A stretch of DNA of 64,000 bases from a virus (Duplodnaviria; Caudoviricetes), in the IMG/VR virus record IMGVR_UViG_3300037067_007848, positions 32,001-96,000 of that record; one strand, given 5' to 3'. Within the stretch, counting starts at the first letter, position 1. Every line of letters begins with the position of its first letter. Below the pieces are notes generated by a model. It saw only the letters and a program-made list of their open reading frames with translations. It made no database searches and was not told where the DNA came from. This document shows, piece after piece, positions 12,092-34,900 of this stretch. The position numbers and the translations under genes were made by a program.

Positions 12092-14251
12092 ATGAATAAA
12101 TATATTGCACTTCATAATCACAGCCATTTTTCTACCCAGGATAGTATAAATCAGCCTAAACATATCATTTCTCGAATGAATTCCCTTGGTATGGATACAA
12201 TAGCTATTTCCGATCATGGCAACCTTGGAGGCGTCGTAACATTTTTAGATGCATTTAAAAAAGAAAATAAAAGGTTGATTGCTGGCTGCGAACTTTACCT
12301 AAGCGAATTTGCCGCAAATATTCGCAATGAAAACAACAGAAAAAATACCCATTTAGTGGTATTGGCCAATGGCGATCAAGGATGGGAAAATTTACTGAAA
12401 ATAGTTTCACAGTCCAATCACCCCGACAATTTTTATTATAAACCCCGCCTTTCTCTTGAGGAAATTGCCCCGTATAGTAAAAATATTATTGCAATTGCGG
12501 GACATTTAGGCTCGTGTTTGGCCCACGAAATAGTCGATAGAGATTGTGTGGTTTTGCCAAATGGGTTAGAAAACGGGATTGTTAAGGCCGAACAATTAAG
12601 GGGGATTTTTGGTGAAAATTTCTACCTTGAATGCCAACTTATTGATGAAAAGTGCCGCCAGTTAGTTGAGGTTATTCGAGAAATTGGGAAAAGGACTGGG
12701 ATACCCTGTGTGGCGACCCCTGACGCCCATTACAGCTTCCCCGAACAAATCCACGATCATCAGGTACTTGTGGCCACCAACCTCCGCAAATCAATCATGG
12801 AGTGTTCTAACCCAGACTTTGCTATGTCAACATTTTTTGCCCCAAACCATTATTATATTCCCTCTTATGACGAATTGTTAAAATGGGGTAATACCGAGGA
12901 AGAATTAGAAAATACGTTGGTAATTGCCGAAAAGTGCAAAAATTATACCACAATATTACGCCAACCAATTCCGCCTCCCTTTCAACTCCCGACAACTTAC
13001 GACAAAACACACGACGACTATTTGCGGGAAAAATGTTGGGCGGCTTTTGATAAAAAATTCGCACATTTAGAAAGTGAAAAATTAAAGATATACCGCGATA
13101 GACTGAGGGACGAATTGGACATTCTGGTTGATAGTAATTTATCCACCTATTTCTTATTAATTGCGGATGTTTTGGATTATGCCCGCGAAATACATTGTCT
13201 GACCTCCCCAGGGCGTGGGTCGGCGGCTGGTAGTTTAGCCTCTTATTTACTCCAAATTACCCAAATTGACCCAATTGAACATGGTTTAATATTTGAACGG
13301 TTTTATAATGCCGCCCGTTGTATGCCCCCCCATGTTGAGTTTGACGAATTCCCCTTTGAACAATTTGATAAAACACCCTATAATGGGGATATTACCGAGT
13401 TTATTCAGCCCGAATGTAAAAAAATAATAGAAAACGCCATATTTAAAGAGGAATTGAAGTTATTGGGCAATCGCCATGTGCGGGCCTATTATTATCACCT
13501 CTTGAAAAATGTCGAATTAGATCAGGCAAATCCCCAAAATAGTTATATTATGTGGGCCTGCGGAAAGGTCGATGAAATAGATATTAAAAATCCGCCCAAA
13601 ATAAATCCTGGTAATGTGTCCATGCCCGATATTGACGTGGATTTTGCGGCAAGTAAACGCGGTAAAATTGTCGAATATATTAAAAATAAATATGGGGAAA
13701 AACATGTCGCCCAATTAGTCACGTTCCAACGAATGAAGGGGCGAGCCGCAATAAAAAATGTTTTACGTGCTCATAATGTTGTGTCGGCCTCTGAAATGAA
13801 CGCGATTACAGAAGACTTCCCAATGGAGGGAAAAATTACCGATGAATTACAGGAAATGAAAGACGAAACTGGCGAATCGTCCATTATTCTTTGGACATTA
13901 CAAAATGATAAAAAGGGTAAATTGCGTAATTGGTGCTATATAGATGAAAATGGCGAGCTAAAAGGGTCATTGGCCAAATATTTTGAGCAGGCGATTAGGC
14001 TAGAGGGTTGTATTTCCGCCCAAAGTAAACATCCTGCGGGGATTGTTATCTCACCCCCCGATATACCCATTGACAAAGTTTGCCCAATGTCGTATGATAG
14101 TAAGGATAAACAGTTAATCGCGGGTTTTGAAATGCGGGATATTGAGAAAATCGGGCTAATTAAATATGACCTTTTATCCCTTTCTCTTCTTGATAAACTG
14201 GCTGGAATTTGTAATATATTAAAATATGGGACAATAATAGGTGAAGAATGA
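12092..14251 (+). CDS. dnaE: DNA polymerase III alpha, N-terminal piece (PHP + palm)
   Basis: LHNHSHFS, SDHG, YYKPR, DAHY, PGRGSAAGSL, FERF, MPDIDVDF, HPAGIV, KYDLL; ends before the fingers domain. Confidence 0.95.
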   Translation: MNKYIALHNHSHFSTQDSINQPKHIISRMNSLGMDTIAISDHGNLGGVVTFLDAFKKENKRLIAGCELYLSEFAANIRNENNRKNTHLVVLANGDQGWENLLKIVSQSNHPDNFYYKPRLSLEEIAPYSKNIIAIAGHLGSCLAHEIVDRDCVVLPNGLENGIVKAEQLRGIFGENFYLECQLIDEKCRQLVEVIREIGKRTGIPCVATPDAHYSFPEQIHDHQVLVATNLRKSIMECSNPDFAMSTFFAPNHYYIPSYDELLKWGNTEEELENTLVIAEKCKNYTTILRQPIPPPFQLPTTYDKTHDDYLREKCWAAFDKKFAHLESEKLKIYRDRLRDELDILVDSNLSTYFLLIADVLDYAREIHCLTSPGRGSAAGSLASYLLQITQIDPIEHGLIFERFYNAARCMPPHVEFDEFPFEQFDKTPYNGDITEFIQPECKKIIENAIFKEELKLLGNRHVRAYYYHLLKNVELDQANPQNSYIMWACGKVDEIDIKNPPKINPGNVSMPDIDVDFAASKRGKIVEYIKNKYGEKHVAQLVTFQRMKGRAAIKNVLRAHNVVSASEMNAITEDFPMEGKITDELQEMKDETGESSIILWTLQNDKKGKLRNWCYIDENGELKGSLAKYFEQAIRLEGCISAQSKHPAGIVISPPDIPIDKVCPMSYDSKDKQLIAGFEMRDIEKIGLIKYDLLSLSLLDKLAGICNILKYGTIIGEE

Positions 14252-15159
14252 ATGTATTAAGTTTATTTGATGGAATATCTTGCGGACAAATTGCTTTAGA
14301 ACGTGCAAAAATAAAAATTAATAAATATTATGCAAGTGAAATTGATAAAGATGCAATTGGCATTACCCAATTTCATTATCCGAATACAATACAACTTGGA
14401 GATATAAGAAATATAAATACAACAAATCTTCCAAAAATGAATTTAATGATTGGAGGTTCTCCATGCCAATCTTTTTCATTTTTAGGGTCTAAAGATGGAA
14501 TGAAAACAATTGATAATTTTGAAGTTACTACATTTGAACAATATTTAGAATATAAAAACAAAGGTTATATATTTAAAGGACAATCTTATTTATTTTGGGA
14601 ATATGTTAGAATATTAAAAGAAATAAAACCAAAATATTTTATATTGGAAAATGTTAACATGTCTTTAAAATGGAAAGAAATAATTACAAAAACATTAAAT
14701 GTTGTTCCAATATTAATTAATTCTAATTTAGTTTCAGCCCAAAATCGTAGAAGATTGTATTGGACAAATATACCAAATATAAATCAACCAAAAGATAAAA
14801 ATATCTATTTATCATCTATTTTAGAAAAAGATATAAAAATATTACAAAAATATAAACTACCAAAAACAAAATCAAGAATACAAATGTGGAACGGTACTTG
14901 TAAAAATATTACAAATGAATTGAAAAGTAGTTGCGTAACTACCAAACAAGATGGATGGCATAATCAAGGTTTATTAGAATTTGATGGATTTTGTAGATTT
15001 TGTACACCTATAGAACTAGAAAGACTACAAACTATTAATGATAATTATACATTAGTTAATAATATTAGTGATAAGAAAAGAGATTTTTTAGTAGGAAATG
15101 CTTGGACAATTGATGTAATTACACATATTTTATCTTTTATAGAGGATAAAGATGAATAA
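14248..15159 (+). CDS. DNA cytosine-5 methyltransferase
   Basis: LSLFDGISCG, GGSPCQ, LENV, AQNRRRLYW, GNAW. Confidence 0.93.
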   Translation: MNVLSLFDGISCGQIALERAKIKINKYYASEIDKDAIGITQFHYPNTIQLGDIRNINTTNLPKMNLMIGGSPCQSFSFLGSKDGMKTIDNFEVTTFEQYLEYKNKGYIFKGQSYLFWEYVRILKEIKPKYFILENVNMSLKWKEIITKTLNVVPILINSNLVSAQNRRRLYWTNIPNINQPKDKNIYLSSILEKDIKILQKYKLPKTKSRIQMWNGTCKNITNELKSSCVTTKQDGWHNQGLLEFDGFCRFCTPIELERLQTINDNYTLVNNISDKKRDFLVGNAWTIDVITHILSFIEDKDE

Positions 15160-15847
15160 TCAATATGTTTGTTGCCTCGACTTTGAGACTGATAGTTCAA
15201 ATCCCAACACTTGTAATCCCGTTCAACTTTCCTCACTAATTATTCACCCTCGCACATTAGAAGTTGTTGAGGGAAGTGAATTTAATTCATTTATTAAACC
15301 AGAAGAAATGGATAAAAATGATTATTTGGCCGTTCACAATGAAACAATAGAATGGCACGCGAAAATTAGAAAACAAACTGTGGGCGAAATTCTTGAAATG
15401 TGGAAAAATGCCCCATCCCAAAAGATAGTTTGGGCAAACTTCCTTAATTATCTTGAAAAATACCATAATAATAAAGGGAAAAGTAAAAGTATGTTTACCG
15501 CCCCAATTGTCATGGGTTATAATATTCTTAAATTTGATTGTGTAATTATTGAACGGTTATGCCAAAAATATAAAAATGTTGATGGACGTGGACAGCCCAA
15601 TATTTTTTACCCACGGGATAAGGTTGATTTAATCAATTATTCATGGGCATGGTTTGAAAATCTCAAAGAACCAGCCTCATATTCAATGGATGTTTTGCGG
15701 GAATTCCTTGGATATTCACAGGTCGGGGCACATGATTCAATGGAAGATGTTCGGTTTACCGCCAAATTATTTATTGCTTTTCAAAAACTGCATCGTAAAA
15801 TAGCAGAAAAAACTCAATTTGCAAAAGCTTTTATTCAAAAGGATTAA
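15152..15847 (+). CDS. DEDDh 3'-5' exonuclease (DnaQ/epsilon-like)
   Basis: ExoI LDFETD, ExoII GYNILKFD, ExoIII HDSMEDV; lies between the dnaE pieces. Confidence 0.88.
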   Translation: MNNQYVCCLDFETDSSNPNTCNPVQLSSLIIHPRTLEVVEGSEFNSFIKPEEMDKNDYLAVHNETIEWHAKIRKQTVGEILEMWKNAPSQKIVWANFLNYLEKYHNNKGKSKSMFTAPIVMGYNILKFDCVIIERLCQKYKNVDGRGQPNIFYPRDKVDLINYSWAWFENLKEPASYSMDVLREFLGYSQVGAHDSMEDVRFTAKLFIAFQKLHRKIAEKTQFAKAFIQKD

Positions 15848-15849
15848 TT

Positions 15850-16191
15850 ATGGATAATTTTACATATCGTGTTTTGGATTTATGTTATAAATATGATATT
15901 CAAGGCTCTTTATATTGGTCAACTTGCGATGGAAAAGTACAATTTTTCATTAATTGTAATGATTTATTTTTTTGGGCCTGTGCCGATTTAGAAGAAATTA
16001 CTCCCGAAAATATTCATATATTGAAACAATCTTTAGAGGATATGGCCCCACTAGACGATATATATGGCCCCGATTTATTTTGTTGTAGATCAAGAAAAAC
16101 GAGGCCGCAAAAGATGATATATAATGAATTTGATGATAATAAAGATATATGGAAACTATTTAAGGAATGTGGCCCAGAAAGGGAAAATTAA
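15850..16191 (+). CDS. Hypothetical phage protein
   Basis: NCNDLFFWACADLEEI..LFCCR..RPQ motif typical of small phage ORFs. Confidence 0.7.
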   Translation: MDNFTYRVLDLCYKYDIQGSLYWSTCDGKVQFFINCNDLFFWACADLEEITPENIHILKQSLEDMAPLDDIYGPDLFCCRSRKTRPQKMIYNEFDDNKDIWKLFKECGPEREN

Positions 16192-16449
16192 ATGAAATCA
16201 ACAGCCGAACTAATTAGATTGTTAAAAATAAAAGACGATTTAGAACATTTTAATTTTTATTATTCTAACAAAATGTTTGAGGGTCATCATCCATATTCAC
16301 TTGATTGCCGCATTTTTGGTAATCTTAGCCTTTTGTCTAAAAAAGAATCGTGTAAATTAGCAGATGAATTAAACGAGGCAATTAAACCCGTTGTTCAAAA
16401 ATATATTAATGAAATAGATAGAGAAATAACTAAAGAAATTCAAGGATAA
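16192..16449 (+). CDS. Hypothetical protein
   Basis: 85-aa ORF tightly packed in the operon. Confidence 0.6.
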   Translation: MKSTAELIRLLKIKDDLEHFNFYYSNKMFEGHHPYSLDCRIFGNLSLLSKKESCKLADELNEAIKPVVQKYINEIDREITKEIQG

Positions 16450-16450
16450 T

Positions 16451-17713
16451 ATGGAATATCATCAGTTTTCGTGTGGTTGTAAATTCCCAATTCAAGGTTA
16501 TTTTGAGGATGGAAAACCAAAAATAGATTTATCCCCAACAATAGAAAATATTCCCCTAGATTGTTCACGAACTTGGGAAATGCTTGGGAGAGGCGACACC
16601 TTTGGCGTTTTTCAACTAGAAAGTAATCAATGTGCGGGATTTTCTAAAAAGCTAAAACCATCTACCTTGGGACATCTTGCCGCCCTTGTAAGTATTATTC
16701 GCCCTGGTGTTATTGAATGTATTGAAGACGGTAAGAGTATGACCAACCATTATATTGACCGTAAAAATGGTGTTGAGCCAGTCAAATATTTCCACCCCGC
16801 CCTTGAAAATTCCCTCAAAAATACCTACGGCATTGCAATTTATCAGGAAAATGTTTTACAAATTTCGCGGGATATTGCGGGATTTAGTTTACAAGAGGCA
16901 GATTTATTACGTAAATGTGTTGATCCAAATTGTACAGTAGAATTAGAAAATGGCGAAATTACCAAAATTGGAGATGTGAATATTGGGCAAAAAATAAAAA
17001 CATTAGATGGCTATACTACAATATTAGATAAATTTAACAATGGTGAACAATTAGTATATAAATTTATATTTAATAATGGGCAATTTATCGTATGTACTGA
17101 TACACATAAATTATTATGTGAAGATGGCATTTGTTATTCGGCATACGATATTTTTACAAAACGAATTGGCGTTCAATCTATTAATGGAATAATATTTATA
17201 GAAAAAATTACCAAGGCCGAAATTATTGAAACAATTGATATATACGTGGATCATCCAAAGAATATTTACTATTTAAATGGAATTGCAAGTCATAACAGCA
17301 TTGGGAAAAAGTCTACGGAATTAATGGCCAAATGCCGAACAATGTTCATAGATGGATGTAAAAAACAAGGCATTGTAAATGAGGCAGAGGCAACACAATT
17401 ATTTGATTGGATCTCAGTCGGGCAAAGATACGCCTTCAACAAATGCGTTTCATTGGATACAATAGTAGAGACTAAATATGAAAATAAAACTATTGATAAT
17501 ATTGAAATAGGGGATGTAATAAAAACAAAAAATAATGAATATACAACCATTTTAGATAAAATAAACACTGGAATACAAGATATATATGAAGTAGAATTAG
17601 AAAATGGTAAAAAAATAAAATGTACATTAGCTCATAAATTTGTTTGTTCGGATAATAAATTATATACTTTACAGGAAATATTTGATAGTAATTACGAAAT
17701 AATATGTGAATGA
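16451..17713 (+). CDS. dnaE: DNA polymerase III alpha, middle piece (fingers), with a cis intein and a split-intein N-half
   Basis: GDTFGVFQLES, IRPG, TYGIAIYQE, ADLLRK/.../SIGKK, YAFNK/. Confidence 0.93.
   Translation: MEYHQFSCGCKFPIQGYFEDGKPKIDLSPTIENIPLDCSRTWEMLGRGDTFGVFQLESNQCAGFSKKLKPSTLGHLAALVSIIRPGVIECIEDGKSMTNHYIDRKNGVEPVKYFHPALENSLKNTYGIAIYQENVLQISRDIAGFSLQEADLLRKCVDPNCTVELENGEITKIGDVNIGQKIKTLDGYTTILDKFNNGEQLVYKFIFNNGQFIVCTDTHKLLCEDGICYSAYDIFTKRIGVQSINGIIFIEKITKAEIIETIDIYVDHPKNIYYLNGIASHNSIGKKSTELMAKCRTMFIDGCKKQGIVNEAEATQLFDWISVGQRYAFNKCVSLDTIVETKYENKTIDNIEIGDVIKTKNNEYTTILDKINTGIQDIYEVELENGKKIKCTLAHKFVCSDNKLYTLQEIFDSNYEIICE
16916..17296 (+). mobile_element. Cis mini-intein (127 aa) in DnaE at ADLLRK|SIGKK
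   Basis: Starts with Cys (CVDPN), block B CTDTH, ends HN followed by Ser; its removal restores the DnaE LRK-SIGKK motif. Confidence 0.9.
17444..17710 (+). mobile_element. Split intein N-half (89 aa) at YAFNK|
   Basis: CVSLDT start, block B CTLAH, then a stop with no C-terminal block. Confidence 0.9.
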
Positions 17714-18618
17714 TGGAAATAACAAAAGAACAAATAGAAAATGTTTATTATAATGAAAAACTCACTCTTAAACAAAGTGCAAGAAAATTAAAAATTGGTT
17801 ATAATAAATTTCGCCAATATATAAAAGAATATAGCATACAAGTTAAGCCTTCTCGCAAACAATATTTTGCAAATGATAATGCCTTTTCTAATTGGAATGA
17901 GAAAATGGCATATTGCCTTGGTTTTATTACAGGAGATGGACATATTTGGAAAAATAGACCATTTTTTACAATAGGAATACATGAAAATGATATCAAAATT
18001 TTAGAATATATTCGAGATTATGTATCCCCTGATTCGTTGGTAAGAAATGATCCAAAAAATAATAAAGTACAAATATGTGTACATTCAAAACAAATATGGG
18101 AAGATTTACAAAAATATAACGCAAATCACGATAAAACATTCAATCTAAAAATTGATTTTGATATTCCAGAAGAATTTTGGGGTGATTATTTAAGGGGATT
18201 TTTTGATGCTGATGGTTGTATTTACTATACACAACCTAAAAAATCACCTTATTACACTGCTTCGTTTTCATGTGCATCAAAACCAATGTTGGAATATATA
18301 AAAAATAGATTAGGTATTGGTAGACTTAGGTGTTTTAGAGAAAAATATTATGAATTAAGTTTTTCCCAATCAAATTGTCTAAAATTATATGATGTAATGT
18401 ATAAGAATGAAAATTGTTTTAAATTAGAAAGAAAATATGAAAAATTTCTTAAAATTCATACTGATTATAAATTTTGGACAAAAGAAGAAGACTCTATTAT
18501 ACTAGAACATATAAAAGATAGAAATACTAGACAGTTATTTACTTTATTAAATAGAGCACCTAAAGCCATTCAATCAAGAAAAAATAAATTAAGAAAAAAT
18601 GCAAAAATCAAGAATTAA
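17710..18618 (+). CDS. Free-standing LAGLIDADG homing endonuclease
   Basis: Two motifs, YCLGFITGDG and YLRGFFDADG; N-terminal HTH-like and C-terminal WTKEED (Myb-like) segments; lies between the split-intein halves. Confidence 0.9.
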   Translation: MMEITKEQIENVYYNEKLTLKQSARKLKIGYNKFRQYIKEYSIQVKPSRKQYFANDNAFSNWNEKMAYCLGFITGDGHIWKNRPFFTIGIHENDIKILEYIRDYVSPDSLVRNDPKNNKVQICVHSKQIWEDLQKYNANHDKTFNLKIDFDIPEEFWGDYLRGFFDADGCIYYTQPKKSPYYTASFSCASKPMLEYIKNRLGIGRLRCFREKYYELSFSQSNCLKLYDVMYKNENCFKLERKYEKFLKIHTDYKFWTKEEDSIILEHIKDRNTRQLFTLLNRAPKAIQSRKNKLRKNAKIKN

Positions 18619-18712
18619 AACAATAAAATATTTAGGTAAACAACCAACGATAGATATTGAAGTTGACCACCCCGAACATGTTTATTACGCCAATGGTATT
18701 CTAACCTCTAAT
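18599..18712 (+). mobile_element. Split intein C-half (38 aa)
   Basis: MQKSRIKTIKYLGKQPTIDIEVDHPEHVYYANGILTSN|S; joining restores YAFNK-SHAV. Confidence 0.9.
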
Positions 18713-19732
18713 TCTCACGCCGTTTGTTATGCCGCCAATGCCTATATTTCCGCCTATCTTAAATGCCATTTCCCCCGTGCATTTTATACATCTTATCTAT
18801 ATTACGCAAATAACCAGCAAAAACCACACGAAGAAATTCGCAAATTGGTCAAAGACGCCAAATTAAGTGGAATTGAAATACTTGGCCCAGATATTTTGCA
18901 CTTGTGCGAACATTTTACACTTGAGGGGCGGGATATACGATTTGGAATTGCCGACATTAAGGGAATTGGCAAAAACGCCTACAAAAAACTTTCTTTTATT
19001 CTTAAACAATATGTGAAAAATACGGAAAAAAAATTAGAAAATATTAGTTGGAACGAATTTCTCATTTATATATCACGAAAAATCGGCAGTGGTACCAATA
19101 TGATATTATTCCAGGGTGGGGCAATGTCATATCTCGGACTTTCCAGAACACAACTATGTTTTGAGTATGAATTATTTAATAGATTGACCGATTTAGAACA
19201 AATGTATATTGCCAAAGAAATGACCAATCAAAGTATTGCCGATAAAAAATTGGGCGATATTATAAAAATTTTAATAGAAGATAATATACCAAATGTGAGA
19301 AGGAAAGTAATTGTCGAGGGTATTATTAAAATGGCCAATAACCCGCCCTATAATATGGAGGACTCGCCCGAATGGTTGGCCCACACAGAAGCAAACTTAT
19401 TTGGGGTTCCTCTAATATGTTCGGGTTTGGAAAATAAGACCGAGGACGCCACCCATACTTGTATGGACTATATTCAAAGTCCCACCGAATGTTCAATTGC
19501 CCTATCTTTGGACGAAGTAAAAGAACATGTTACAAAAAATGGAAAAAGCAAAGGGAAAAAAATGGCGTTTATGACGGCGAGCGACCTGACTGGAAAGTTG
19601 GAGTGTGTGATTTTTCCAGAAGAATATGCCCAGTTTGAACTTTATATATTTGCGGGGAATAATATTTTGGCGGGTGGGACACCTAGTAAAGATAAATCAT
19701 CATTTATAATTAAAAATGTAAAGCAAATATGA
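18599..19732 (+). CDS. dnaE: DNA polymerase III alpha, C-terminal piece, preceded by the split-intein C-half
   Basis: SHAVCYA..AYLKCHFP, HhH IRFGIADIKGIG, OB-fold KMAFMTASDLTG..VIFP. Confidence 0.93.
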   Translation: MQKSRIKTIKYLGKQPTIDIEVDHPEHVYYANGILTSNSHAVCYAANAYISAYLKCHFPRAFYTSYLYYANNQQKPHEEIRKLVKDAKLSGIEILGPDILHLCEHFTLEGRDIRFGIADIKGIGKNAYKKLSFILKQYVKNTEKKLENISWNEFLIYISRKIGSGTNMILFQGGAMSYLGLSRTQLCFEYELFNRLTDLEQMYIAKEMTNQSIADKKLGDIIKILIEDNIPNVRRKVIVEGIIKMANNPPYNMEDSPEWLAHTEANLFGVPLICSGLENKTEDATHTCMDYIQSPTECSIALSLDEVKEHVTKNGKSKGKKMAFMTASDLTGKLECVIFPEEYAQFELYIFAGNNILAGGTPSKDKSSFIIKNVKQI

Positions 19733-19777
19733 ACATTAAATAAATATTAAAATTATTTATAGTTAAATTCTTTATAG

Positions 19778-19805
19778 TTGAAATTATTTATCCTCTTTCT
19801 ATAAT
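19778..19805 (+). promoter_or_regulatory. Sigma70-type promoter (TTGAAA-N16-TATAAT) upstream of the phage sigma gene
   Basis: Near-consensus hexamers in an intergenic gap; AT-rich context lowers specificity. Confidence 0.55.
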
Positions 19806-19821
19806 ACCATTAGAGGAATTT

Positions 19822-20274
19822 ATGGACGAACAGCAAGATTTAATATTACAAAACCTAAAATTAGTCGTACATATAGCAAAAAGATTTGGTCCAAAAAATA
19901 ATGACGAATTACAGGATTTAGTTCAAGAGGGAAATTTAGCCTTAGTTAATGCCACCCGAAATTATAACGGTAAATACAAATTTAGTACATACGCCTGGAC
20001 AATTATTTATAGGGCAATCGCCCGCTATTATTATAAGCCATTCCCAATATTAATTGATTTATTTAATTTTGACGTTCAAGATTATCGTATATCGCCAAAC
20101 TTTCTAATTGACTATGACGACGGAAAAAATACCGATAATTTGACAGTTTTAATGTTAAAAACCCAGGGATATACATTTAAAGAAATTGGGGAAAAATTCG
20201 GGAAAGATTATCATTGGGCAAGTAGTAGATATGACAAAGGGATAAAATATATCAGGGGAATAATTAATGATTAA
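19822..20274 (+). CDS. Sigma70-family RNA polymerase sigma factor (compact, regions 2+4)
   Basis: NLKLVVHIAKRF, DLVQEGNLAL, KFSTYAW, GYTFKEIG. Confidence 0.88.
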   Translation: MDEQQDLILQNLKLVVHIAKRFGPKNNDELQDLVQEGNLALVNATRNYNGKYKFSTYAWTIIYRAIARYYYKPFPILIDLFNFDVQDYRISPNFLIDYDDGKNTDNLTVLMLKTQGYTFKEIGEKFGKDYHWASSRYDKGIKYIRGIIND

Positions 20275-20485
20275 ATTACTATCAAATCGTGAAATGGAGT
20301 TGTTTAGATTAGCGGTCAATTTGGCCATTCGATTAGACGATTGTAGGAATGGGCCAACACGCCAACCATTGCCGAAAAAATATCAAAAAATCTTTCTTTT
20401 GAAATTGATGAAGATGATATTTATGAGGTGTGCGAAATTGCCGAAGGACAATGAAATAACACCAAAAAAATCAAATAATGAATAA
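20267..20485 (+). CDS. Hypothetical protein
   Basis: 72-aa ORF overlapping both neighbours. Confidence 0.45.
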   Translation: MIKLLSNREMELFRLAVNLAIRLDDCRNGPTRQPLPKKYQKIFLLKLMKMIFMRCAKLPKDNEITPKKSNNE

Positions 20486-21687
20486 AAAGGAAAATATTTT
20501 AATAAAGGAAAGAGTTAAGCCAAATAATATTACTATAACTCATCCAGAAGTTGCGGAACAATGGGATGGCGAAAAAAACGGGGATGAAAAGCCGGAATAT
20601 TATACGAAGGGAAGCAATGCGAAAATTTGGTGGTTATGTAATATGTGTCGTTATGAATGGCAAACTAAGATAGGTGATAGATGTTTGTATCATACGGGAT
20701 GTCCAGTATGTGCGAATCGTATTGTTTCCCATGGTAAAAATGACTTTGCTACAATTTGCCAAGATTTGGCAAAAGAATGGAATTATGATAAAAATAAATT
20801 AGGCCCAGAATATTATATTGCAGGTTCACATACAAAGGTTTGGTGGAAGTGCGAACACGGACATGAATGGCAGGCAAGATTAAGTAATCGAAAAAACCGT
20901 CATCATGGATGCCCATATTGTGCTGGCAAAAAAGTTCTTGTTGGTTTTAATGACCTTAAAAAATTAGAACCAGAATTGTGTAAAGGATGGGATTATAATA
21001 AAAATAAATTTGGACCAGAAAATTATACTAAATCTAGTCATAAACTCGTATGGTGGAAATGTGAAAAAAATCATAGTTGGCAATGTGCTATAAACAACCG
21101 AACAAGCAAGAATAAAACGGGGTGCCCATATTGTAGTGGGGCAAAAGTTTTAAAAGGATTTAATGATTTAAAAAAAAAACTATCCAAAAATTGCGGGAGA
21201 ATGGCATCCAACATTAAATGGCAATAATAAACCAGAAAATTATACAAAAGGAAGCAGAAAAAGGATTTGGTGGTTATGTAAATATGGACACGAATATTAT
21301 CAAGAAATACATGCAAGATGCATTAAAAATTGTGGTTGTCCAGAATGTGCTGGTACATATGGCGAAAAAACTGTTTCTGAATGTTTAAAAAATAACAATA
21401 TAAATTTTATACAACAAAAAACTTTTAATAATTGTAAATATAAAAATTTATTATACTTTGATTTTTACCTACCTAAATATAATTGCTGTATAGAGTATAA
21501 TGGAATGCAACATTATAAATATATAAAACATTTTCATAAAAATAAAGAAGTTTTTGAAATATGTAAAAAAAGAGATGAAATTAAGAAAAAATATTGTGAA
21601 GATAATAATATTGTATTAATTACTATATCATATAAAAATTTTAATAAAATTGATGAAATTTTAACAAAAGAATTACAATTAGCATGA
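20478..21687 (+). pseudogene. Zinc-ribbon repeat protein with C-terminal PD-(D/E)XK/Vsr-like endonuclease (probable homing endonuclease), frameshifted at A10 (21170-21179)
   Basis: Four EW..KN..PE..GS..K.WW.C..H.W...R....GCP.C repeats; removing one A joins to ...YFDFYLP..IEYNGMQHY..KRD..K ending at 21687. Confidence 0.82.
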
Positions 21688-31951: not shown

Positions 31952-34900
31952 TTAATAATGTATTGTTCTAATAATTTTCATAAATGATGATAAATCTACA
32001 GAATAACAACAGTTTGAGTCATGCCCAGAACAAATGGCTTCACAACTTCCACAGTTAATAGTACCAAGATAATATGTTTCGGGATATATATGGTATGCGG
32101 GGTAGTCCCTATTTGTTATTGTTGGAAATGTAACCTGAAGTTTACTTTCTAAATTATTGCTATACATCGCTGAAGCCATATAAACTTCTGTAGGCCCAGA
32201 TTCTAATTCATAATAATATTCACCATTTGGATAGTGTTTTGTTGCAATATAACCCTGAACAATTGAATTAATTCTATAATTATTAATAATATATATAGTG
32301 CTATTAATTGTTACGCTACTATCATAGGCATATTCAGCCACCGAAACACTCTCATAATATGGTGCCAATCCAATACCATCATTGGGGAAGCTCCATGTTT
32401 GTCCATCTTGAAGTCCTGCATAAAAATATTTTTCCGATACTATTTGACTTACTAAATATCCCCAGCCAGATGGAAAATTATATATTTGCCCATTAATATT
32501 ATCGCCGTTTTTACAAGAACTAACATATCCACCGCCATGAATAACTCTATAAAATGTAGCATCTGGTTCTCGAATACAATTAATGCCAACTATTGGTTGT
32601 GGCCCCCAGTGATGGCAACTATCCGTTGGTGATTTTTCCAGGGTAATATCCATACTGGTATATGTGGATGCAGTTGGTGCTTTATATTGTCCCGAATCAA
32701 TTTCTATTGTCAATGTAGTTCCGCCGTGCAATATATTTTCAACATACCACGTTGAATCACCCGCCCTATTATCATAAAACACGTCATATGGAATATAATT
32801 TAGGACAACACTTCCAAAACTATTAAAATTAATGGGGTCATCAAATGGGTCGCTTAACCAACTACTATAAGAAAAACGGTATTTACCATTACTATCTTTA
32901 ATCAATGACAGGCCATTAGTCCAGGTATTTGCGGTTACGGACTGTGCAGAAAAAAAATATGGAATATTATTTGTATTTTGAAGATTATAATTACCAACAG
33001 TTATTGCACAGCCAAACGATACTAATGTCCCACATAATTTATAATATTCAATAGGATACCCATATGTCTCTAAAATATGATGTTCGGTATATCCTGCAAA
33101 ATTACCTACCAAATCTGGCATACAACAGGCCCCGCCTTTATAATAAGGTAGACAATAATAATCGGAATTAGATACATCAGAACATAATATACTTGGATTA
33201 TATGTAAATGTTGCTACGGCATCATCACGGAATTTTTTTATTGGCCCCAAAGCTCCTGTTGTAACCGCTGTATTTTTTTGTACTGGTAATGCCTCATTAT
33301 TAAAATCAAACATATTTGGTTGATATTGTGATAAATCCTCTGAAAATTTAGCAAGTTGCCCATATGGCGTAACATAGGTATAAACACACCTTGGCATATT
33401 GGTAGAAAAAGACGCTGGATAAAATTTTCCAAAATGTGGATTTAATATCATGTACTGATCTGTATAATTGGACAAATCTAACAAATATGTATATTGTGGT
33501 AAAAGACTAAATATAAATGGATAAACAACACTTTCATAAGAATGGGCATAATATCCAAAAATCCCATCTTCCATTACATCTTCTATGTTATAGGCATATC
33601 CCCCACTACCTAAAACATATTGATTACTGCCAATAGATGTTATTCCTGTTCCGCTTGCTTTGATACTATTAGATGAGTATTTATAATATAATGTATAAAA
33701 ATCATTACCTCCACCAGTGGCACATGGATCATAATAATTTTCATAATAAACAGTCTGATCGGATGGATATTGTGCATTAAAAATAATATTTCCGCCACCC
33801 ACATTTATTATTGGTTCTCCACCAGTTGCATATGTTAATGAATATTCTACAACATTTTGAGATGTTCTTACTGTACAATTAGAGGTATATGTTTCTCCAC
33901 CGATAGTAGCCCCACCATATCGAACAAAACATGCAGGCTGTAAACTTGGGCCACTCCCATTGCCTTCGTATTCAACTATAGGAAATGTTGAAATATTAAC
34001 ACTTGGTGAATAATTATCTATATAATCCAATATGGTAATACCATTTGCCCCACGAATACTTTCATCAAAACAACATGGTTGCGGTTGTACACTATCAGTA
34101 TATGCAACATAACATTTTGGCCCACAATTTACAATTAGTCTGTTAAATCCAATTAAATTGCCATTAGCTCCTTGACATTCAACCGAAAATTTTACATCTC
34201 CTTTATTAAAATCGTCTATATCAACAGTGGAAATTAAATCGGTAAGATCGGTCATTGCACTACCATTATCACAGGCGTTTACAACATCAGTGTGCCCATT
34301 TGCCGATAATGTTCCTGCGATTAATCGAACAACTTCTTTATCATATACAATATAGACCTTATTTATTAATCCTGGGATATTATTTTTTGATGCTAAAGTC
34401 GTTCCTTTATATGTAAATTTACTATCACAATATATTTGTCGTCCCCAAGTTAGGGTATCGTAAAGATCATTACACCGAACATCGTGTATAATATATGTTT
34501 TGTAATTAAAAATACTTTCTAAACAATAATCGCCATTAGAACCAAAATATAATTTATACGAACTTCCATTTTGCCCACTAAAATATGGGTAAGACAGTGC
34601 AATATTAGCATAATTGTACAAACCTGTTAAATTTCCTGTGGCCGATGTTATTGTACTATTAAATATTCCAGAAGGAGTATTAGTATTAGTGAATACATCA
34701 GGATATGGTGTATATTCTACACTATAATTTGACAATGGGGAAAAAGCTAGATTTTTATACGAAGCCTTGCCATTTCCAATATAGGTGGAACGACTTGTAA
34801 TAGGAATGCTATCAGTTGTAGAATATTGAAATCCTTCTCCTACGACACATGGACGCCCAATATCCATATCACCATTATCTAATGTCCATGGGTCCAGAGA

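Follow-up and report, generated by a model that had tools for sequence, protein, structure and literature searches.

How did a phage DnaE gene come to carry two inteins of one family 49 residues apart, and is one of them a copy of the other? The question is raised by a 64,000-nt stretch of DNA (the window), which was taken from a 121-kb IMG/VR virus record (IMGVR_UViG_3300037067_007848, Caudoviricetes; positions 32,001 to 96,000). The genes at 12092-14251 and 16451-19732 are the two halves of a DnaE-type polymerase, and the C-half carries two interruptions. The upstream one (intein 1) is contiguous and occupies a point termed site 1 (LRK/SIGKK; the slash marks the insertion point here and below). 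The downstream one (intein 2) is split into an N-terminal fragment (IntN) and a C-terminal fragment (IntC) and occupies site 2 (FNK/SH). An earlier reading of the DNA (the sequence-only reading) had described one cis and one split intein, 49 residues apart and both totaling 127 amino acids (aa; 127 and 89 + 38), and translation upheld these coordinates to the base. The motifs that it had listed as common to the two (YTTILDK, CTxxHK and TIDIxVDHP..YY.NGI) are present in both.

The explanation that we favor, at a probability of roughly 0.7, is that the phage DnaE C-half is interrupted by two class-1 mini-inteins of the same family, of which intein 2 is fractured at the usual site and intein 1 is a divergent member descended from an old colonization of a non-allelic site. 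On this account, a member of the site-2 family would have colonized a site 49 codons upstream of its own and thus given rise to intein 1, which would then have adapted to its new surroundings by losing the block-F histidine and gaining the canonical penultimate one. Intein 1, being contiguous, would splice in cis. The free-standing LAGLIDADG gene splits intein 2 at the canonical endonuclease-insertion point; the halves of this intein would associate via the acidic tail of IntN and the basic head of IntC and then splice in trans. Together, the two reactions would produce a 543-aa DnaE C-half.

The boundaries of both inteins were established by removing them conceptually. The resulting 543-aa product is 56.9% identical to the intein-free homologue P0155 and aligns without gaps at both junctions to P0155 and to a second intein-free homologue, P0180; the intein boundaries are therefore exact. 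Class-1 residues are found in intein 1 (C1, T61-D-T-H64, N127 and S+1, with the end ..SHN/S) as well as in intein 2 (C1, T-L-A-H, N127 and S+1). An AlphaFold2 model of intein 1 is a compact HINT domain with a predicted local distance difference test score (pLDDT) of 97.5. The best Foldseek match of this model was the gp41-1 intein (6RIZ; template-modeling (TM) score of 0.89), followed by many other inteins.

Family membership was assigned using profiles and match ranks. A site-2 profile that was built without the window's own sequences gave 118.5 bits for intein 1, 163 bits for intein 2, and 39-46 bits for the inteins native to site 1. Conversely, a profile of the native site-1 lineage (LRK/(S/C)-IGKK) gave intein 1 only 28.7 bits, compared to 166-182 bits for its members. 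In a profile-free scan of 1.84 billion representative proteins, 23 of the 25 best matches of intein 1 were DnaE site-2 inteins. Single-stretch matches to site-2 alleles reached 79-80 bits (60-80 bits for the top ones), compared to no more than 47 bits outside DnaE. Intein 1 also retains 20 of the 26 columns that are conserved in at least 80% of the site-2 family. It is located 49 residues upstream of the family's usual site (LLRK/../SIGKK), where the FN(K/R/H/A)/SH context of site-2 insertions is lacking. Taken together, these scores and ranks support the view of intein 1 as an unusual element, one that belongs to the site-2 family and occupies a foreign site, rather than a member of the native site-1 lineage, and the move to a non-allelic site appears well supported by them.

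Two of the six departures of intein 1 from the conserved columns look compensatory. Asn116 (17261-17263) occupies the block-F column that holds His in 99% of the family, and His126 (17291-17293) occupies the penultimate column that holds Ser in 94%. Both residues of the family signature (..H.FY.NGIATSN) are kept in intein 2, and neither is kept in intein 1. The exchange is possibly a compensatory rewiring of the Asn-cyclization step; the replacement of the block-F His by Asn together with that of the penultimate Ser by the canonical His suggests continued selection for the splicing of intein 1.

Site 1 has its own lineage of inteins. Nearly every relative lacks an intein there: site 1 is empty in the majority of the 80 closest DnaE loci retained from IMG/VR and in 23 of the 37 loci with a site-2-type intein. 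Where it is natively occupied (examples: P0016, P0036, P0040, P0085, P0108, P0115, P0142, P0148, L096 and L116), the inteins end in ..NGILVHN (..VHN/(S/C)-IGKK) and are about 140 or about 400 aa long. Their insertion point is the same as that of intein 1 (exactly so in L096, P0040 and P0108). The lineage of their splicing domains is unrelated to it (25-28% identity), and many of them, at ~400 aa with a nested endonuclease, are unlike it in architecture as well. Several proteins with a native site-1 intein also carry a contiguous or split site-2 intein; hence, a cis and a split intein separated by about 49 residues are in themselves a recurring layout. No close relative carrying intein 1 was found in the 80 closest loci or the 37 intein-bearing loci, nor among 5.8 billion clustered proteins or in the phage GenBank set.

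The site-2 family occurs at other neighboring points of the same gene. In P0002, a split site-2 intein is accompanied by a second member of the family (158 bits), which is inserted one codon upstream of site 1 as defined in the window (ELR/C...SN/SAIGKK). Because the upstream intein is only 32% identical to intein 1 and the insertion is not strictly allelic, it is most simply taken as an independent event. In P0264, P0274 and P0280, split N-fragments of the family (100-113 bits) are found at ..AY.K/C, 17 residues downstream of site 2. This third insertion point is always occupied by a split N-fragment, and P0264 and P0274 also carry a contiguous site-2 intein. The family is thus present at no fewer than four points within ~70 residues of the DnaE fingers domain, so short-range hops of the family recur. 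At a further site in this domain (..RPG/C..), P0285, P0288 and P0295 carry large inteins in which an HNH motif is nested. With five or more insertion points, the fingers region is a hot spot for inteins. A broader formulation strikes us as an even bet: that one compact mini-intein family has repeatedly hopped short distances within the fingers domain, leaving a record of intragenic ectopic transposition, and that, where two of its members are present in one precursor, cross-splicing might now and then leave out the 49-aa extein.

Several observations weigh against the favored explanation. The site-2 family grades into other, non-DnaE gp41-1-like phage mini-inteins, and these reach 75-94 bits on the site-2 profile; the margin of intein 1 is consequently only ~20 bits and is not absolute. 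The phylogeny is poorly resolved (~130 columns, with intein 1 on a long branch). In the approximately unbiased (AU) test, a clade of intein 1 and intein 2 gave p = 0.51 at a cost of 0.87 log-likelihood units, and groupings of intein 1 with the P0002 intein one codon upstream of site 1 (at site 1') and with the native site-1 inteins gave p = 0.40 and p = 0.32, respectively. No mechanism is evident, as the DNA of the empty site 1 is identical to that of the empty site 2 at 12 of 42 positions, with a background of 11.5 +/- 3.2. Similar target DNA was therefore rejected as the cause of mis-homing; the only feature that the two sites share is Lys at -1 and Ser at +1. We infer the direction of the move, from site 2 to site 1, only from abundance (more than 150 site-2 occurrences compared to a handful elsewhere). 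Finally, both inteins are presumed to be active in splicing, given their intact catalytic residues and the presumed need for the gene.

A different origin would be a true local duplication, in which the resident intein 2, or a contiguous ancestor of it, was copied to give intein 1, so that the two are sisters, and intein 1 then diverged rapidly at the new site. The sequence-only reading had proposed a local duplication or a transposition to a new site. That the inteins are true relatives and that intein 1 is at a foreign site (118.5 compared to 28.7 bits) stands; sisterhood by local duplication fares worse. The two inteins are mutual best intein matches within the genome. BLASTP of intein 1 against IntN of intein 2 (IntN2) gave E = 1e-14 with 45% identity over 64 residues, and full-length identity is 50/126 (39.7%). 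The exact heptad YTTILDK is common to these two inteins alone; its codons differ at three synonymous positions. Among 86 family members, however, intein 2 ranks only 14th for intein 1, and intein 1 ranks 68th for intein 2; when the N part was considered alone, the resident IntN2 was 45th of 118. The equal totals of 127 aa are no evidence of sisterhood, because this length is a family trait, being the commonest one (13 of 59 contiguous alleles). For the site-1' intein of P0002, the resident site-2 IntN of that protein is the 3rd-ranked match of 118, a hint that local copying happens.

At the DNA level, the two inteins are 54% identical, and the same codon is used at 26 of their 50 identical residues. 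No in-register DNA repeat between intein 1 and intein 2 was detected, and a recent duplication or gene conversion was rejected on that ground. There is an exact 18-nt direct repeat (16936-16953 and 17590-17607). Its two copies are out of register: both encode VELENG, one at residues 8-13 of intein 1 and the other at residues ~50-55 of intein 2, and these positions are not homologous. A common peptide motif together with AT-biased codon use explains the repeat best. The nucleotide identity and the codon sharing indicate that the move of intein 1 is probably old and that intein 1 is no recent copy of the resident intein 2.

Trees were calculated in IQ-TREE with quick and careful runs on 87 and 35 inteins; most of the forks were unresolved. 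Intein 2 grouped with site-2 alleles, and intein 1 was located, on a long branch, within the site-2 radiation and not next to intein 2; the two were joined in neither tree. The three AU tests rejected no placement, not even that of intein 1 with the native site-1 lineage, and the low cost of a clade of the two inteins is a point in favor of duplication. Phylogeny was therefore set aside as an arbiter, and we relied on profile scores and match ranks instead. We consider sisterhood or direct local duplication unlikely.

Less probable still is that an independent, undersampled lineage of gp41-1-like mini-inteins entered site 1 from elsewhere, such that the likeness of intein 1 to the site-2 family is only a general family resemblance. 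The non-DnaE mini-inteins described above, with their 75-94 bits, lend this some plausibility, as do the identity of intein 1 to any site-2 allele (only 32-43%) and the uninformative AU tests. It accords poorly with the single-stretch matches, which separate the DnaE site-2 alleles from everything outside DnaE, and with the C-terminal blocks TIDIxVDHP..YY.NGI, which are almost residue-for-residue those of site-2 alleles such as P0005.

Cross-splicing, in which the IntN part of intein 1 and IntC of intein 2 (IntC2) would join LLRK directly to SHAV and yield an alternative DnaE without the 49-aa extein and with some biological role, is possible in principle given the common family and fold, the equal totals and the Ser at both +1 positions, and it is very improbable, as intein 1 is contiguous and predicted to be a single compact domain whose own C part would compete intramolecularly, the IntC-equivalent part of intein 1 is only 17/35 identical to IntC2, intein 1 lacks the +5/-3 charge pairing seen between IntC2 and IntN2, split inteins of such kind from different sites, including gp41-1 and gp41-8 of the same host protein, are mutually orthogonal in experiments (PMC7090010), and the skipped product would very likely be inactive because the 49-aa segment holds invariant fingers-domain residues (K286, K287, F299, Y327, F329 and N330 in DnaE alignment A1).

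The features of the locus are collected in Table 1.

Table 1. Coordinates of the DnaE halves, inteins and endonuclease gene in the window, with the basis of each assignment
Feature	Position	Strand	Basis
DnaE N-terminal half (PHP domain + polymerase core), separate gene, no intein at end	12092..14251	+	Pfam PHP, DNA_pol3_alpha; relatives L019 and L024 show same two-gene layout
DnaE C-half, first extein (fingers domain), end ..ADLLRK	16451..16915	+	Pfam DNA_pol3_finger 1.7e-39; alignment to intein-free homologues
Intein 1, contiguous class-1 mini-intein, 127 aa, CVDPN...IASHN then S, site 1 (LRK/SIGKK)	16916..17296	+	Translation, profiles, AlphaFold2 model
49-aa extein between inteins (SIGKK...RYAFNK)	17297..17443	+	Translation; spliced-product alignment
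Intein 2 IntN, 89 aa (17444-17710; C1, TLAH) + stop 17711-17713, site 2 (FNK/SH)	17444..17713	+	Translation; allelic to many split/contiguous site-2 inteins
Free-standing LAGLIDADG homing endonuclease gene, 302 aa, different frame	17710..18618	+	Pfam LAGLIDADG_3, LAGLIDADG_1; phrog_4645 1.9e-32
Intein 2 IntC, 38 aa, ..ILTSN then SHAV, own ATG	18599..18712	+	Translation; IntC lengths in split relatives
DnaE C-extein (SHAVCY..., HhH + OB domains)	18713..19732	+	Pfam HHH_6, tRNA_anti-codon; spliced-product alignment

Intein 2 is an ordinary allele of a widespread phage DnaE site-2 intein in a known arrangement. Its insertion point (AFNK/../SHAV) is the family's usual site in the fingers domain (..RY.FNK/SH..). 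Its identity to alleles at this site in other phages (P0003, P0031 and L087) is 51-52%, and it groups with site-2 alleles in the trees. The protein scan yielded 59 contiguous and 34 split site-2 inteins. In IMG/VR, 37 viral loci with a site-2 intein were identified, of which at least 22 are split (IntC downstream of the IntN stop). IntC was placed in 20 of these 22 split loci; it is 38 aa long in 18 of the 20, 39 aa long in L114, and was taken as 38 aa by construction in L116. The net charges of the IntC head and the IntN tail of intein 2 are +5 and -3, respectively, and those of the equivalent parts of intein 1 are -1 and 0. Electrostatic pairing of this kind is usual in natural split inteins.

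The open reading frame (ORF) in the gap of intein 2 encodes a two-motif LAGLIDADG endonuclease, in which Pfam detected only LAGLIDADG_3 and LAGLIDADG_1. The ORF begins within an ATGA in which its ATG and the stop of IntN overlap; at its 3' end, it overlaps the start of IntC by 20 nt. Homologues that are 47-50% identical fill the same gap in L101 and L106. Among the split loci, the gap gene encodes a DUF559/Vsr-like nuclease with NUMOD3 in most cases and a LAGLIDADG protein in the others, and the distance between IntN and IntC is 878-920 nt in the 14 split loci measured, compared to 151 nt in L099. The halves in the latter (L099:5288-5440) have no endonuclease gene between them, apparently because it was lost after fixation of the split. 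In L024, the site-2 intein is contiguous, and an HNH domain is nested in it. The shared frame of IntN and IntC in the window was dismissed as a coincidence: the gap is a multiple of 3 here, and all three phases are found elsewhere.

Three further inteins are encoded outside the window in the same 121-kb genome (G000:C1:22921-25890 on the plus strand and G000:C1:102268-106851 on the minus strand). An anaerobic ribonucleotide reductase-like gene holds one of them, and the terminase large subunit holds the other two. All are large, have LAGLIDADG-like domains, and are unrelated to the DnaE inteins and to the free-standing endonuclease. The possibility that the window's endonuclease is linked to the LAGLIDADG domains nested in these NrdD and terminase inteins was rejected, as no similarity was found.

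The first break in DnaE, which divides the polymerase into two genes without any intein, is a layout conserved in related phages (window 12092-16451; L019:4267-8623; L024:3650-9469). A DnaQ-like exonuclease gene is always located between the halves in the window, L019 and L024. The gap in the window additionally holds a Dcm-type C5 methylase (14248-15159) and two small ORFs of unknown function (15850-16191 and 16192-16449); the gap in L024 contains an HNH-like ORF. Directly downstream of DnaE are genes for a small sigma-70 region-2 protein (19822-20274) and for a protein with three DUF4379 treble-clef zinc-finger repeats (20478-21227). The sigma-like gene and the next, 565-aa gene are syntenic in L024. 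A promoter and terminator scan of 16300-19900 gave no sign of separate control elements, with counts at the level of shuffled sequence and no terminator.

Few convincing donor-recipient pairs of inteins are known. A resident allele with a divergent member of the same family 147 nt away would provide a defined system in which to test how often and by what mechanism inteins move ectopically. Two questions that the locus raises are whether site 1 is cut by the free-standing endonuclease and how intein 1 adapted, given that the block-F His was exchanged for the penultimate one. Moreover, its two inteins, which are related, compact and gp41-1-like and of which one is cis and the other split, could serve as a natural pair for orthogonality testing.

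The arrangement of a split intein and an endonuclease is already known; what is new is that a second member of the family occupies a foreign site in this gene, together with evidence for the recurrence of short-range hops. The known arrangement is that of the fractured genes of Dassa et al. (2009), in which a conserved enzyme gene is broken by a split intein such that each half is its own ORF. The window shares this organization (with 17713 as the last position of the IntN ORF and 18599 as the first of the IntC ORF), the free-standing endonuclease gene between the halves (the ORF at 17710-18618), and the sizes of the fragments (IntN of ~88-105 aa and a short IntC). Three fractured DnaE loci were described in that study, one of which has an additional in-frame upstream intein, as does the window (PMC2677866). 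The window differs in that its endonuclease is of the LAGLIDADG type rather than GIY-YIG or Vsr-like, the types reported by Dassa et al., whose main text does not contain the word LAGLIDADG (PMC2677866), and in that its upstream intein belongs to the same family as the split one.

The gp41-1 split intein (cyanophage-like helicase; PDB 6QAZ and 6RIZ) is the closest solved fold to intein 1 (TM score of 0.89, root-mean-square deviation of 1.8 Å, 127 columns). It is also the closest solved structure by sequence (E = 3e-5), a match without an aligned stretch to the designed repeat protein Tako8 aside. Its compact size of ~125 aa is shared with intein 1, and its 88 + 37-type break point is as in intein 2. 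It differs from intein 1 in host protein and insertion site, and the identity is only 22-23%. The cyanobacterial DnaE split intein (Ssp/Npu) is not a close relative, with Npu DnaE (2KEQ, 4KL5) reaching only 23 bits (E ~8e-4), and the phage DnaE sites of Dassa et al. are, by their account, distinct from that in cyanobacteria (PMC2677866).

Close insertion sites in a replication gene are also found in the haloarchaeal MCM-a/MCM-d system, in which the presence of one intein affects the homing of its neighbor (Turgeman-Grott et al., PNAS Nexus 2023; PMC10643990). Several such sites are present there, as in the DnaE of the window, and the MCM inteins are large with nested endonucleases, unlike the mini-inteins described here. 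Homing requires flanking homology, and moves of inteins to new sites are thought to be very rare (PMC1635734). Proposed ectopic movements offer a further comparison with intein 1, for example that of the non-allelic Cre RPB2 and ThrRS inteins, which were found to be unexpectedly alike and were read as a case of rare ectopic movement (Goodwin, Butler & Poulter, BMC Biol 2006; PMC1635734). The flanking DNA of the two sites is dissimilar in that case, as it is for sites 1 and 2. In the window, the putative donor and recipient sites are located in one gene, 147 nt apart, and the family is found at two further points nearby.

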